Source: an uncultured bacterium (GTDB taxonomy: Bacteria > Cyanobacteriota > Cyanobacteriia > CAKZMO01). Taken from it: a stretch of 37,327 bases of DNA. This document shows, piece by piece, positions 4,714 to 28,436 of the stretch. A model generated the notes under the pieces. The model worked only from the letters and a program-made list of their open reading frames with translations. It searched no databases and was not told the origin of the DNA. The position numbers and the translations under genes are program-made. Where the stretch lies: positions 1 through 37,327 of the forward strand of contig CAYXJG010000004.1 of the NCBI GenBank assembly GCA_964465285.1. The letters are read 5' to 3'. The number at the start of each line of letters is the position of its first letter. Positions within the stretch are counted from its first letter, which is position 1.

Positions 4714-4817
4714 CACGACTTGGCAAAGTTCTCAAATTCACAACACAAAGATAGGGGTTTGGCGCGCGCTCCGCGCGCCCCAAACCCTCATTCTGGTGTG
4801 AAACTTGCCAAGTCGTG
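4714..4817 (+). mobile_element. Family F1 element, slightly decayed
   Basis: CACGACTTGGCAAAGTTCTCAAATTCAC...GTGAAACTTGCCAAGTCGTG; loop TCC; no clear target duplication. Confidence 0.85.
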
Positions 4818-5058
4818 TAAACATCAAGGCGAGAGACATCTTTATCTTTCTAAATAGATGTAAAGAAGTGCAAAAGGTCTGCGGGTATAGAGTGACAACG
4901 CGAGGGCAAGGTGCAGAGGAGGCGATCGCCCCGTTTCAGCGGGACGCAGGGGGCATTCTACCGAGAATCTAATGATTCGCAAATCCTTGATTTACGGTTA
5001 TCATTACGGTCATTCGCACTACCGTCTAGCTTGGAGGCGTCTGCATGGAGGCACGGTC

Positions 5059-5634
5059 ATGATTAGCGTTGCACCGCCTATCGGGAATTATGCTCCAGAT
5101 TTTGAGCTGCCTGATGTTCACGGCACCGTTCACCACCTCACCCGATATTTAGAAACATGGCAAGCCATCGTTGTTGTCATGCTTTCAAGTCAATGCCCTG
5201 ACGTACGCTCTTGCATTCGTGAGCTAAACGCTATTCAGGCAGAATTCGCATCTCAACAAGTCACAGTCATCGGCATTAATGCAAACGATGAAAAACAGGT
5301 TCCAGAAGACAGCTACAGCCAGATGAAAGGATTTGTCGAGGCCTATAGTATCCAGTTTCCCTACTTGCGAGACGTGACCCAGGATGTTGTCCGAACCTTC
5401 ACAGCAGAAACGACTCCCCAGGCGTTCTTGATTGATGCTGCTGGGAAAATTCGTTACATCGGTGCTGTTGGCGATTCAGGAGGAACCGCACAGTCAACGG
5501 CACCTCAGCCCCCATCTTCTCCGCTCAGGGAGGCGATCGCTCAACTCCTTGCCGGGGAGGCGATCGCCGTTCCGATTACCCAGGCAACCGGGTGCCCAAT
5601 TCGATGGCGCAAAGCCGCTGGCTACACCCTGTAG
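5059..5634 (+). CDS. Thioredoxin-fold AhpC/TSA (redoxin) family protein
   Basis: [48 protein letters not shown] upstream of ATG 5059. Confidence 0.85.
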
Positions 5635-5740
5635 GAACCGTGCAGAACTGCTACCTCCCTTTGCCCGTCCCAGAGGTTCGTGCTTTTGCTACATCTGCTG
5701 TTATCTTAAGTGGGAAACCTTCAAAACTAGGCGGTGTCGC

Positions 5741-6469
5741 ATGGGGACAACATATCAGCGCATTTTGCTCAAGTTAAGCGGCGAAGCACTCATGGGGGAC
5801 TTACAATACGGCATTGACCCCGCTGTTGTACAAAAAATTGCCCTTGAGGTTGCCGATGTGTGTAATACCGGAGTTCAGGTCGCCATCGTTGTCGGTGGCG
5901 GCAATATTTTTAGGGGGGTCAAAGGAGCGGCATCGGGCATGGATCGAGCCACTGCTGACTATATTGGTATGATTTCAACGGTCATGAACGCCATGACTTT
6001 GCAAGATGCCTTTGAGCGCAACGGCATTCCTACACGGGTACAAACGGCGATTGAGATGCAGGAAGTGGCAGAACCCTACATTCGTCGCCGGGCCATCCGC
6101 CATCTGGAAAAGGGGCGATTGGTGATTTTTGGGGCGGGATCCGGCAATCCGTTTTTCACCACAGACACCACTGCGGCTCTCAGAGCTGCCGAAATTAACG
6201 CTGAAGTGTTATTCAAAGCCACTAAAGTTGATGGTATTTATGATTCAGACCCGCGTACAAATCCTGATGCAAAGCGCTACCAGAGTTTAACCTACAGCCA
6301 TGTGCTCACCCATGATTTGCGTGTAATGGATAGTACGGCGATCGCACTGTGTAAAGATAACAATATTCCTATTATGGTGTTTGACTTGTCTGTAGCGGGC
6401 AACATTCACCGAGCAGTAATGGGAGAACCCATTGGAACGATTGTTGGAGGAACCTGTGAAGTTATCTGA
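5741..6469 (+). CDS. pyrH: UMP kinase
   Basis: [38 protein letters not shown]; start moved to ATG 5741. Confidence 0.97.
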
Positions 6470-7004
6470 AGCCGAGAGTTTGATGCAAAAAGCTGTTGAA
6501 GCAACCCAGCGCTCATTCAACACCATTCGGACAGGGCGTGCTAATGCGTCAATCCTGGATCGGGTGATGGTGGAATACTACGGTACCCCCACGCCGCTTA
6601 AATCCCTGGCGAACATCAACACGCCTGATGCATCAACAATTACTATTCAACCCTACGATCCGGGCAGCCTGTCACTCATCGAGAAGGCCATTTCCCTCTC
6701 AGATGTGGGGCTGACTCCAACGAACGATGGCAGTATTATTCGCCTTAATATTCCGCCGCTCACTAGTGAGCGGCGCAAGGAGTTTGTTAAAGTGGCTGCC
6801 AAGTTTGCAGAAGAGGGCAAGGTCGCTATTCGTAATATTCGCCGGGATACCATTGACAGCATTCGCAAAGACGAAAAGAACAGCGATATTTCTGAGGATG
6901 AGTCCCGTGATCTGCAAGATGACGTGCAAAAAGCAACGGATAAATACGTCAAGAAAATTGACGACCTTCTGGCAGAGAAAGAAGAGGACATCATGAAGGT
7001 TTAG
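6456..7004 (+). CDS. frr: Ribosome recycling factor
   Basis: [36 protein letters not shown] start after GGAGG, overlapping the pyrH end. Confidence 0.97.
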
Positions 7005-7031
7005 CCGTTGGTCAGCTCTAAAATTTAGAGC

Positions 7032-7123
7032 AGTAGCTTGGCATAATGAAAACCAGATGGAAAGCCTGCACCGCCTGCTGCACAGGGCTTTACGGGTTGT
7101 CTAATTGGTGATACTCATCTACT
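7032..7123. mobile_element. Family F6 element, decayed
   Basis: AGTAGCTTGGCATAAT...CTACT|TA; internal similarity to 35728-35830. Confidence 0.65.
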
Positions 7124-7125
7124 TA

Positions 7126-26121: not shown

Positions 26122-26185
26122 AAAGGAACTATCCTAAAGGCTTTCCCAGATTATTCTGGAAGGACACTGCTCAAACCGCTAATCC

Positions 26186-27145
26186 ATGTCTCGATATTTC
26201 CTGAAGCGCATTCTGATTTCTGTGCCCACTCTGCTTGCCATCAGCCTTGTCATCTTCCTGATTCTGGCGCTGGCCCCGGGCGATCCATTAGCAGAAATTG
26301 CGAATAATCCCTCCATTTCTGAAACAGTGCGGGAAAACATCCGCCGATCCTTTGGTCTCGACCAGCCCCTTCACATTCGCTATGTCAAGTGGCTGTGGGC
26401 TCTGCTTCAGGGAGATATGGGATATTCGTTCACAAGCCGAAGCCCCGTCAGCGAGCTATTGCTACAGCGCCTGCCGACGACCCTGGCTGTGGTCGGCATC
26501 GCCTACGCCATCAGTATTGCCCTCGCTTTTCCTTTGGGCATTGTATCTGCGATTAAGCGGCATTCTCTGGTCGATCAGTCTCTTACCACGATCGCCTTTA
26601 TCGGCATTTCATTGCCCCCTTTTTTTACGGGACTACTCTTCATCATTGTGTTCAGCGTTCAGTTGGGATGGTTTCCGTTTATTTACGACAGCACCCTGCG
26701 GGTGGATGACTGGCAGTCCTTTCTGGCACAGGTGCGGCAGTCCGTCATGCCTATTGCGGTGCTGGTGCTGTTCCAGACGGCAGTGCTGATGCGGTTTATC
26801 CGGTCAGCAATGACCGAGCAACTAAGCCAGAACTATGTCCGCACCGCCTATGCGAAGGGATTGCCCCACCTGCGCGTCACCCTCTGGCATGTGCTGCGAA
26901 ATGCGCTCATCCCTGTAGTGACTTTAATCGCCCTGGATGCGCCAACGGTGTTTACGGGAGCACTGATTACTGAGCAGGTATTTCGGGTGCCTGGGATGGG
27001 GGCACTCCTCATCGATTCCATCTTTCGAAATGACACCCCCGTGGTGCTGGCAATCACGATTGTCTACGCCGTGCTCGTCGTCATCTTTAATCTAGTGGCT
27101 GATGTGCTGTATGCCACGCTCGATCCTCGTGTTCAACTGCGCTGA
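26186..27145 (+). CDS. Peptide/nickel ABC transporter permease (DppB/OppB-like)
   Basis: LAPGDP, GLDQPL, GDMGYS, EAA loop NYVRTAYAKGL, HVLRNAL, LDPRV. Confidence 0.93.
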   Translation: MSRYFLKRILISVPTLLAISLVIFLILALAPGDPLAEIANNPSISETVRENIRRSFGLDQPLHIRYVKWLWALLQGDMGYSFTSRSPVSELLLQRLPTTLAVVGIAYAISIALAFPLGIVSAIKRHSLVDQSLTTIAFIGISLPPFFTGLLFIIVFSVQLGWFPFIYDSTLRVDDWQSFLAQVRQSVMPIAVLVLFQTAVLMRFIRSAMTEQLSQNYVRTAYAKGLPHLRVTLWHVLRNALIPVVTLIALDAPTVFTGALITEQVFRVPGMGALLIDSIFRNDTPVVLAITIVYAVLVVIFNLVADVLYATLDPRVQLR

Positions 27146-27169
27146 GGATACAGGATTGCATAGTTCCCA

Positions 27170-27271
27170 CATGACTTGGCAACGTTCTCAAATTCACAAT
27201 GAAAACATGGGCTTAGGGCGCGCGGAGCGCGCCCCAAGCCCATGTTTCTTCGTGAAACTTGCCAAGTCGTG
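27170..27271 (+). mobile_element. Family F1 element between the two permease genes
   Basis: Stem variant AAACATGGGCTT/AAGCCCATGTTT, loop GGA. Confidence 0.87.
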
Positions 27272-27401
27272 TTTCCTATCCTGCTGATTCTTCTTCGTCG
27301 GGTGATTTTCAACAAATAATGAGGTTGAGACGCAGTCCAAACGCCCTAAAATCATTATCTTCATACCACTCTTCTTTGTTGTACGCCTTGTCGAATATCC
27401 G

Positions 27402-28319
27402 ATGACATCCTCTATTTCTCCTCCTTCAACGACATTAGTGCCTGCTGTTATGCAATCTCCGTGGCAGCAGGCATGGAAGCGGTTCAAGCGCGATCGCACG
27501 GCGCTGGTAGGCAGCGTTATGCTGCTGCTCATCATGATGGGCGTGCTGATTGTGCCGCTGTTTTACACTGTTCCCATCGACCAAATTGACTTTGGGCAGT
27601 CGAGCCAGCCTCCCAGTTGGGAGCATCCCTTTGGCACCAACGATTTAGGGCAAGACCAGTTAGCCAGAATACTGGCAGGGGGACGCATTTCCCTGGCAGT
27701 AGGTGTCGCGGCGATGCTGGTCGCAATTCTGTTGGGCAGCGTGATTGGGGCGATCGCCGGATTCTACGGCGGCATTCTCGACTTGCTGCTAATGCGGATC
27801 ACCGATTTATTCCTGGCGCTACCGCAACTGCCCGTGCTGCTGCTGGTGCTGTATCTGTTTCGGGAGCCTGTGGGAGCGATCGCCGGAGCTGAGGTGGGAA
27901 CCTTTGGGCTGGTGGTGGGGGTCATCGGCATCCTCAACTGGATGTCCGTGGCGCGGCTGGTGCGAGCCAGTTTCCTCAGCCTACGAGAGCAGACCTTTGC
28001 GCGGGCTGTCCGCGCCCTTGGCGCTCGACCCTGGCGGTTGATGTGGCTCCACCTCATGCCCAATGCCCTGAGTCCGGTCATCGTTGCTGCAACCCTGGCG
28101 GTCGGCACCGCCATTTTAACGGAATCGACTCTCAGCTTTTTGGGCCTGGGCTTTCCGCCCGATGTTCCGACCTGGGGCCGTATGCTCTACGATGCCCAAA
28201 ACTACCTGGAAACGGCACCTCACATGGCGCTGTTTCCAGGAGCCGCGATTTTCCTGACAGTGCTGAGTATTAACTACATCGGGGATGGTCTGCGGGATGC
28301 GCTGGATCCAAGAGGGTGA
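27402..28319 (+). CDS. Peptide/nickel ABC transporter permease (DppC/OppC-like)
   Basis: HPFGTNDLGQD, GGRISL, ARLVRA, ESTLSFLGLG, GDGLRDALDPR. Confidence 0.93.
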   Translation: MTSSISPPSTTLVPAVMQSPWQQAWKRFKRDRTALVGSVMLLLIMMGVLIVPLFYTVPIDQIDFGQSSQPPSWEHPFGTNDLGQDQLARILAGGRISLAVGVAAMLVAILLGSVIGAIAGFYGGILDLLLMRITDLFLALPQLPVLLLVLYLFREPVGAIAGAEVGTFGLVVGVIGILNWMSVARLVRASFLSLREQTFARAVRALGARPWRLMWLHLMPNALSPVIVAATLAVGTAILTESTLSFLGLGFPPDVPTWGRMLYDAQNYLETAPHMALFPGAAIFLTVLSINYIGDGLRDALDPRG

Positions 28320-28332
28320 AGAGTCATGAGGT

Positions 28333-28436
28333 CACGACTTGGCAACGTTCTCAAATTCACAACGCAAGGGTAAGGGTTTGGCCCGCGCGGAGCGAGCCCC
28401 AAACCCTTATTCTTGCGTGAAATTTGCCAAGTCGTA
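28333..28436 (+). mobile_element. Family F1 element
   Basis: ATGAGGT 7-bp duplication; loop GGA. Confidence 0.88.

Follow-up and report, generated by a model that had tools for sequence, protein, structure and literature searches.

The intergenic spacers of a 37,327-nt contig from an uncultured cyanobacterium (assembly GCA_964465285.1, contig CAYXJG010000004.1; hereafter the window) carry hairpin repeats whose loop occurs in either orientation relative to the arms of the element. In F1, a 105-bp repeat dispersed through the genome, loop orientation is recurrent, reversible and without history; it is homoplasious, and independent of arm sequence, subfamily, transcription and position. F1 and six further hairpin families are non-coding hairpin MITEs (miniature transposable elements with inverted repeats), and the spacer at the hairpin tip has probably been inverted in place, repeatedly, by strand switching between the two arms; the molecular route, and flipping in situ rather than at transposition, are what we infer from the patterns described below. 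The window is an entire contig (C4) of a metagenome-assembled genome (MAG) of 5.45 Mb in 633 contigs, and the metagenome runs that contain its sequence are labelled as microbial mat metagenome; repeats of the F1 kind probably explain the fragmented assembly.

Anatomy and copy number of F1

F1 has terminal inverted repeats (TIRs) of 13 bp (CACGACTTGGCAA / TTGCCAAGTCGTG) and a target-site duplication (TSD) of about 7 bp. Read 5' to 3', it opens with the TIR CACGACTTGGCAA and a 5' arm in which GTTCTCAAATTCACA is additional; the 27-bp stem sequence ACGCAAAAATAGGGGTTTGGGGCGCGC follows and, past a spacer of 3 nt, its complement, and the element closes with the short 3' arm GAAAC and the second TIR. 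The centre of consensus copies is a 27-bp perfect inverted repeat flanking the 3-nt spacer. As a single strand, the whole of F1 forms one hairpin that has a bulge of 9 nt (-52.6 kcal/mol by nearest-neighbour DNA folding). Since the bulge and the spacer are the sole asymmetric features of the element, the orientation of the arms can be compared with that of the loop.

A profile search of the whole genome (nhmmer) yielded 1327 F1 loci, 838 of them full length; F1 occupies 113,655 bp, or 2.1% of the genome, and the median lead of the better strand over the other was 47 bits. Around 159 of the 361 copies with exact end motifs, the flanks hold perfect direct repeats of at least 6 nt, mostly 6-8 nt. 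By its TIRs, its TSDs, its shortness, its copy number and a partner that shares its ends, F1 is a non-coding hairpin MITE.

Loop orientation across the genome

All 838 full F1 copies were oriented by their arms, and the apex was placed by best stem pairing; 548 copies have a clean 1-nt or 3-nt apex, 85 are spacerless, and 205 with irregular tips were excluded. Read with the long arm (the one bearing GTTCTCAAATTCACA) on the 5' side, the 548 classifiable copies divide into 281 with a purine-type apex (R) and 267 with a pyrimidine-type apex (Y; binomial p=0.58). This is the tabulation of loop against arm orientation by which an earlier, sequence-only reading of the window had proposed to check its claim that the loop flips. 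Clean triloops number 343 genome-wide, and 238 of them, far more than chance would give, are GGA or TCC, in a ratio of 120:118. The balance extends over the individual apex classes (R/Y: GCGGAGC 119/118; CTGAG vs CTCAG 67/64; CGGAGCG 21/18; GCGAAGC 16/19; CGGCG 14/16; GCAGAGC 17/8; CTAAG 8/14), and the same F1 stems carry the reverse-complement spacer pairs GGA/TCC, CTGAG/CTCAG, GAA/TTC, GAG/CTC and AGA/TCT.

The single-base apex CT-N-AG separates inversion from point mutation. Its central base is G in 67 copies, C in 64, and A or T in 22; the equal dominance of G and C argues for inversion, since inversion swaps G and C while point mutation favours transitions.

Loop polarity in F1 shows no signal with respect to transcription direction (101:90), neighbouring copies (124 of 236 alike) or contig (338 vs 342.8±12), and the R:Y ratio has no age trend against distance to the F1 consensus (the 17 youngest copies are 11:6). 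Nothing here points to selection or to a replication-strand bias on orientation, and the counts suggest no function for loop flipping. The orientation of the F1 arms relative to transcription was 167:128 between co-directional genes.

Inheritance of arms, stems and loops

An arm tree of the 548 F1 copies was calculated with FastTree after exclusion of the apex columns. On this tree orientation requires 184 changes, compared to 180.5±6.1 with shuffled labels. Unoriented loop class requires 199 changes (246.5±5.5 when shuffled), and four paired stem variants, each tested with its own columns removed, require 24, 63, 75 and 56 (80-101 when shuffled); since loop class and stem variants need fewer changes than their shuffles, the arm tree is able to detect inheritance where it exists. 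After correction, none of the 40 polymorphic arm sites is linked to orientation (smallest p 0.024), and all four gametes are present with every F1 arm variant. Pairs of F1 copies with identical arms have the same orientation in 42 of 84 cases, and nearest neighbours share it at a rate of 0.504 (0.499±0.020 when shuffled).

The stem variants of F1 form subfamilies (r 0.65-0.68) with linkage to one variant of the outer arm (r=0.53), so that F1 elements are inherited whole, and all 12 of the largest stem-haplotype subfamilies hold both orientations. In young subfamilies, whose copies differ from the subfamily consensus at about 2 of 89 nt, the orientations are divided 12:13, 7:7, 5:9 and, in one case, 27:11. 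Against the consensus of the whole family, F1 copies have a median of about 6-8 differences per 89 nt, and the phylogeny is near a star. An A/C polymorphism in alignment column 15 of F1 (GCAA[A/C]GTTCTC, immediately inward of the TIR; for example at window positions 4727 and 25614) is without phylogenetic signal on the arm tree (48 changes vs 48.8 shuffled), in contrast to the stem variants.

Mismatched pairs of the stem were compared with the polarity of the loop. At 4-8 bp from the loop, the strand of the purine loop carries 53 G.T and 26 A.C mismatches (p=0.003), and beyond 9 bp 121 G.T and 147 A.C; side-by-orientation tables for the pairs 51/67 and 52/66 gave p 0.02 and 0.002. These figures are suggestive only, of a loop-proximal stem that travels with the loop and a distal stem that does not, as expected with switch points inside the stem. 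In the inner stem of F1, 1450 compensated pair changes stand against 1352 single changes, compared to 28 against 851 in the TIR stem; the compensated inner-stem changes fit arm-to-arm copying, and selection on master copies would be an equally good cause.

Hairpin repeats in the window

The spacers of the window (1-37327) hold at least seven hairpin families; F1 is represented by 10 full and 5 partial copies, alongside F4, F6, F7, F8, F9 and F10. The sequence-only reading had named elements by their starts, and each apex lies about 57 nt downstream. Copies with the loop or the structure resolved are the following.

1530..1635, + strand: F1, full; apex GCGCT-C-AGCGC with central base at 1587, Y; TSD TATGATG; not listed in the sequence-only reading
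4714..4819, + strand: F1, full; apex GCGC-TCC-GCGC, TCC at 4770-4772, Y
9119..9222, - strand: F1, full; + strand CTC at 9165-9167, oriented GCGCG-GAG-CGCGC, which contains GCGGAGC, R
9263..9345, + strand: F7; apex CGGAG at 9304-9308
9336..9440, + strand: F6; apex TGC at 9386-9388
10769..10856, - strand: F7; + strand apex TGGAG at 10810-10814, oriented CTCCA
13273..13356, + strand: F1 with the right outer arm missing, joined to a different repeat family; GCG-TGGAG-CGC, TGGAG at 13328-13332, R
14030..14134, + strand: F1, full; apex GCGC-TTC-GCGC, TTC at 14086-14088, Y; TSD ACAATGA
14276..14395, + strand: F4; apex GAT at 14331-14333
17286..17400, + strand: F4; irregular apex at about 17342
17836..17940, - strand: F1, full; degenerate apex, unclassified; not listed in the sequence-only reading
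22893..22996, + strand: F1, full; GCGCA-CTCCG-CGCGC, ACTCCGC at 22946-22952 containing TCC
25601..25704, + strand: F1, near consensus; apex GCGC-GGA-GCGC, GGA at 25657-25659, R; within another repeat, TSD GGGCAAA
26019..26122, + strand: F1, full; irregular apex CGGGT at 26073-26077; not listed in the sequence-only reading
27170..27273, + strand: F1, full; apex GGA at 27224-27226, R
28333..28437, + strand: F1, full; apex GGA at 28389-28391, R
32649..32734, + strand: right-hand part of F1 in fusion with a different repeat family; apex GGG at about 32686-32688
35726..35825, + strand: F6, co-oriented with the copy at 9336; apex GCA at 35777-35779

Arm-oriented reading of these copies reproduces, with one exception, what had been noticed from the letters of the window: the GGA-type apex of the F1 copies at 25601, 27170, 28333 and 9121 (the minus-strand element at 9119-9222), the GT-GGA-GC variant at 13273, the reverse-complement TCC at 4714 and 22893, and TTC at 14030. 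The co-oriented F6 copies do show TGC and GCA, and the two F7 copies, which face opposite ways, each carry GGA on the + strand; brought into a common orientation, their loops are near reverse complements. The claimed flip of F4 fared less evenly, in that the letters TAC and GCA given for it were not recovered in the window (GAT and an irregular apex stand in their place), while F4 loops do split between the two orientations genome-wide.

Other hairpin families and related genomes

The other families were scored with a minimum score of 50 and a strand margin of at least 20 bits. Their loops also occur in both orientations, at about 1:1: F6 TGC 23 / GCA 19, F7 GGA 9 / TCC 8, F4 GAT 19 / ATC 19, F9 92/71, F10 11/8 and F8 5/2 (among 8 true F8 copies). 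The median perfect stems in these families measure 5-22 bp and lie inside longer imperfect stems. An apparently fixed orientation of F8 (TGC 38 vs GCA 1) was discarded as spurious, the product of weak F9 cross-matches that had been oriented by the loop itself. With seven families split and orientation random on the F1 arm tree, the suggestion that the centre inverts independently in several families is supported.

In a sister species of the same genus (G001), a search pattern anchored on the left arm found GCGTTGC 13 times and GCAACGC 14 times, with no match to the reversed control; these loop patterns had no match in three further genomes (G002, G003 and G014), whose arms and loops differ. 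A one-sided result in the sister species (about 11 GTT-type against 1-2 AAC-type loops among the 20 best BLAST matches) was treated as a ranking bias, given the anchored counts of 13 and 14.

The dominant apexes, GCGGAGC and GCGAAGC of F1 (for example at window positions 25653-25663) and C-GCA-G of F6, F9 and F10, fit the motif GCGNAGC; the GTT/AAC loop of the sister species lies outside it. The accessible part of one paper describes GCGNAGC as an "extraordinarily stable mini-hairpin DNA" motif (PMC13037366). Nearest-neighbour DNA folding did not separate the two F1 strands (-52.6 vs -52.7 kcal/mol) and is uninformative on a mini-hairpin effect.

Comparison with independent contigs

Orientation in the assembly was compared with k=31 contigs of a second assembler, from three runs of one study, perhaps the source sample; this is a test of the assembler and not of the sample. 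Such contigs break inside repeats, and within a repeat their cover adds up over all the copies. The F1 copy at 22893 was reproduced from its unique left flank through the loop (contig X1 record 5, 21880-22975), and the F6 copy at 9336 (X3 record 17, 9320-9670) and the F4 copy at 17286 (X1 record 3, 14358-17380) were reproduced with both flanks, each of the three with 0 differences. Since an arm-distinguishing base and the whole loop lie within 31 nt of each other, k-mers of at least 31 nt derived from reads should fix the linkage of loop and arm.

A candidate partner insertion sequence

A 1.5-kb insertion sequence (IS) at G000:C154:2363-3859 (locus L081, 64-1560), present once in the assembly, has the F1 TIR at its ends, and about 24 nt at its right end agree with the F1 long arm. 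The intact open reading frame of 448 aa that it holds matches the Pfam domains DDE_5 (45.3 bits, cut-off 27) and DDE_Tnp_1 (25.5 bits, cut-off 23); its best NCBIfam match, the best of five, is the IS701 model NF033540, with 123.2 bits below the cut-off of 150. It is likely that this single-copy IS serves F1, and several other MITE families with the same TIR, as their autonomous partner; the enzyme that mobilises F1 in trans would then be a DDE transposase of the IS701/IS4 kind. IS4 and IS701 DDE transposases are cut-and-paste enzymes that leave behind a break repaired by copying the sister. At the F1 site 27170 of the window, the intergenic spacer measures 340 nt, compared to 81-85 nt in the same-genus genomes G001 and G003; the shorter spacer has no room for an F1 element, which fits an insertion at 27170 in this lineage.

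Origin of the inversions

Strand exchange between the two complementary arms would invert the spacer, and the likeliest route would be inter-strand template switching in the course of replication or of repair synthesis. A newly made copy of one arm would pair with the other template strand, copy the spacer there and switch back; with arms that read alike on either strand, the only trace would be a reverse-complemented spacer, at times together with loop-proximal stem. The process would be passive and reversible, and it would occur at least about as often as one point substitution anywhere in the element; flipping at that frequency would lead to a 1:1 equilibrium without history. As a rough estimate from mixed subfamilies of about 2% divergence, which assumes that master copies do not flip, the flip rate may exceed that of substitution per site by a factor of some tens or more, or about one flip per point change anywhere in the element. 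Of the two mechanisms offered in the sequence-only reading, recombination or strand exchange between inverted arms fits these observations; hairpin-transfer replication does not, as the hairpins are internal to contigs.

Several points weigh against inversion in place. A 1:1 equilibrium is expected alike from flips in situ, from a redraw at each transposition and from conversion between copies; there are mild departures from 1:1, in the GCAGAGC class (17:8) and in the subfamily with 27:11. The G.T/A.C polarity test was devised post hoc on the same data, and most of the compensated changes in the stem are passed on as subfamily characters (r up to 0.68) and may reflect selection on master copies. 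The metagenome scan found no strain or contig of the same species, the closest match having 66% protein identity. Same-genus genomes are 68-79% identical over the protein-coding parts of the compared stretch, with the exception of short matches of 86-94% at 25850-25994, in the unannotated segment at 23.4-29.2 kb; at the one window site that allowed a comparison, 27170, the spacer of the relatives is too short for the element. Finally, no flip at a single locus was seen directly in the material examined for it, which consisted of k=31 contigs that break in repeats.

Flipping might instead be tied to propagation, with transposition or the repair of the donor gap redrawing orientation and the copies fixed in situ thereafter. 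Identical-arm pairs that are already at 50:50 and mixed young subfamilies speak for this, as does a DDE partner of the IS4/IS701 kind; the accessible part of one study presents repair synthesis as prone to template switching (bioRxiv 10.1101/2023.08.09.552703). On the other hand, a flip chance of about 50% per event would be needed, which no known step provides; the median divergence of the copies leaves time for slow flips in situ, and with a near-star phylogeny identical arms are no proof of recent common descent. A finite rate accounts for the 27:11 subfamily better than an even draw at every event would, and overall this explanation seems possible, though rather unlikely. A more specific version, in which each round of propagation sets the spacer anew by way of a folded or repair-synthesis intermediate, so that the GCGNAGC motif would set the folding strand, orientation would set the extruding strand and the G.T excess (53:26) would be the trace, is improbable. 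Ectopic gene conversion among the roughly 1300 copies, where antiparallel pairing of inner palindromes donates a flipped spacer, gains from the many copies whose inner palindromes of 57 bp are identical and read alike on either strand, and from the weak heritability of loop class (199 vs 246.5 changes); it would have the same outcome as intramolecular switching wherever donor and recipient stems are identical. The linkage of inner-stem haplotypes to one another and to the outer-arm variant (r 0.65-0.68 and 0.53) indicates that exchange is not rampant, and conversion is improbable too.

The sequence-only reading had named two things that might overturn it: an assembly artefact at palindromes, and one ancient inversion per family. 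A de Bruijn assembler could pick the direction of a palindrome loop at random, and the MAG, with its 633 contigs and a depth of about 11x in the best run, is fragmented, as are the relatives that were searched. Yet the k=31 contigs reproduce the linkage at three loci, a separately assembled sister species with another loop is balanced at 13:14, and the polarity of mismatches follows the loop, which a random choice by software would not produce; the collapse of repeats, by our reasoning, would homogenise orientation and not randomise it. An artefact is therefore very unlikely. It is harder still to believe that the inner hairpin is a separate mobile module that enters either way, or that the loop is hypermutable by point changes, even though the apex class varies among identical-arm copies. 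Elhai et al. (in 2008) reportedly described SDR elements, small hairpin repeats nested in cyanobacterial mini-transposons. In F1, the gap between left-arm and right-arm motifs is 55-59 nt in 628 cases, and its shortest forms measure 15-29 nt (42 cases); no palindrome-free backbone was found among the pairs of left and right arm motifs, and since the shortest forms are half-hairpin deletions, the hairpin is not a separate insert. The linkage of stem haplotypes to the outer arm speaks against such a module as well, and a hypermutable loop would need three transversions to turn GGA into TCC and is at odds with the central base of CT-N-AG (G/C 67/64 vs 22 A/T). Two old subfamilies, one per orientation and equally amplified, would produce a two-state pattern, but four gametes with every arm variant, 12 mixed haplotypes, the absence of linked arm sites and a tree at the shuffled level (184 changes) reject them; a 1:1 ratio would moreover have to arise in seven families and in a second species, and the probability of this explanation is close to nil.

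Derivatives of F1 and composite repeats

About 42 F1 derivatives are without one inner arm and the loop (for example window 11043-11099, and G000 C20:9545, C29:18259 and C81:12072), and at least 10 of these half-hairpin forms have one common junction (CACAACGCCAAACCCCTGT...) across different loci. It seems that the half-hairpin form kept transposing and that the hairpin is dispensable for mobility. The spacerless copies, 85 of the 838 full ones, are perfect palindromes (for example with the apex context TTGGGGCGCGCCCCAA), and length variants of the GC repeat move the register of the apex (the GAG/CTC class); spacerless copies and register shifts together indicate that the F1 tip also loses and slips bases. 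Bare TIR palindromes (CACGACTTGGCAAAGTCGTG, CACGACTTGCCAAGTCGTG), which are ends without an interior, occur at G000 C1:7678, C36:15519 and C50:16300, and may be excision footprints or minimal elements.

Nested or chimeric repeats lie in the window at 25560-25760, 13357-13460 and 32620-32690. The F1 copy at 25601 stands inside a repeat of the family CAGCAATTCTCATGATGGAAGTTTAGGGG..., and the copies at 13273 and 32649 are fused to the same family at short common motifs. Between window positions 12000 and 29500, F1 and F4 hairpins score as resembling intrinsic terminators (stems of 20 pairs with T-rich tails behind them), in most cases on the strand opposed to arm orientation.

Comparison with known systems

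F1 resembles MITEs of the IS4/IS701 type in its length of about 105 bp, its lack of coding sequence, its 13-bp TIRs, its direct repeats, its many copies and a partner IS whose ends match. IS701 was first described in a cyanobacterium, and its target duplication is 4-5 bp; the TSD of about 7 bp in F1 differs from this, and the partner protein, at 123 bits, does not reach the IS701 cut-off of 150.

Parvovirus and poxvirus termini also exist in two inverted-complement forms, flip and flop, of about equal frequency; those are terminal or closed ends of linear replicons that invert in each round by nicking and hairpin transfer. Hairpin transfer of the parvovirus type was rejected for F1, whose copies all lie within contigs, with chromosomal genes on either side and TSDs at the flanks. 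A programmed invertase switch was rejected as well, the inverted segment of F1 being 3 nt at hundreds of dispersed sites with unbiased orientation; no search for a recombinase was made.

Closer parallels are found among mutations that arise at inverted repeats. Kelchner and Wendel are said to have described, in 1996, minute inversions associated with hairpins in chloroplast non-coding DNA; plastids descend from cyanobacteria. In the available text of a more recent paper, which cites Kim and Lee (2005), small chloroplast inversions with stems of 11-24 bp give flip-flop orientations (PMC12928735). As far as that text goes, these inversions of 5-50 bp resemble those of F1 in their association with inverted repeats in stem-loops, in their flip-flop behaviour, and in being homoplasious and phylogenetically uninformative; they differ in that they are compared between species at single orthologous loci, whereas F1 has a loop of 3 nt, a stem of 27 bp and hundreds of paralogues in one genome. 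The term "flip/flop" also appears in a Microcystis paper (PMC11448079), in its reference list, where it concerns large chromosomal inversions. Literature searches, whose coverage did not extend to subscription journals and supplements, found no paper on loop flip-flop in bacterial MITEs.

The template-switch (Ripley-type) class of mutations shares with F1 an exactly reverse-complemented spacer between perfect, unchanged arms, arms longer than about 9 bp, a short spacer, a change that is reversible and recurrent, and arms that tend to stay complementary. Spacer inversion by inter-strand template switching accounts for ten events in yeast coding DNA (PMC8604942), and the accessible part of a study of RNA genes reports 69 cases of loop-only inversion in hairpins across rRNA trees, bacterial rRNA included (PMC8794818). 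Events in these yeast and rRNA studies are rare, whereas at least 184 are needed in the F1 family alone, where equilibrium has been reached; their substrates are genes, and that of F1 is a dispersed mobile element.

The approximately 550 scorable replicates in one F1 family, together with six further families, compare with the usual handful of loop-inversion events, and they offer a natural gauge of the rate of template switching, or of recombination between short inverted repeats, relative to point substitution in a wild cyanobacterium. They also counsel caution where sequences of repeat elements serve as markers for phylogeny or typing. And they show that a perfect hairpin in a mobile element can stay complementary while its tip scrambles. 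The mechanism proposed here is not new; F1 presents a known class of mutation in a setting that is new and richly replicated.

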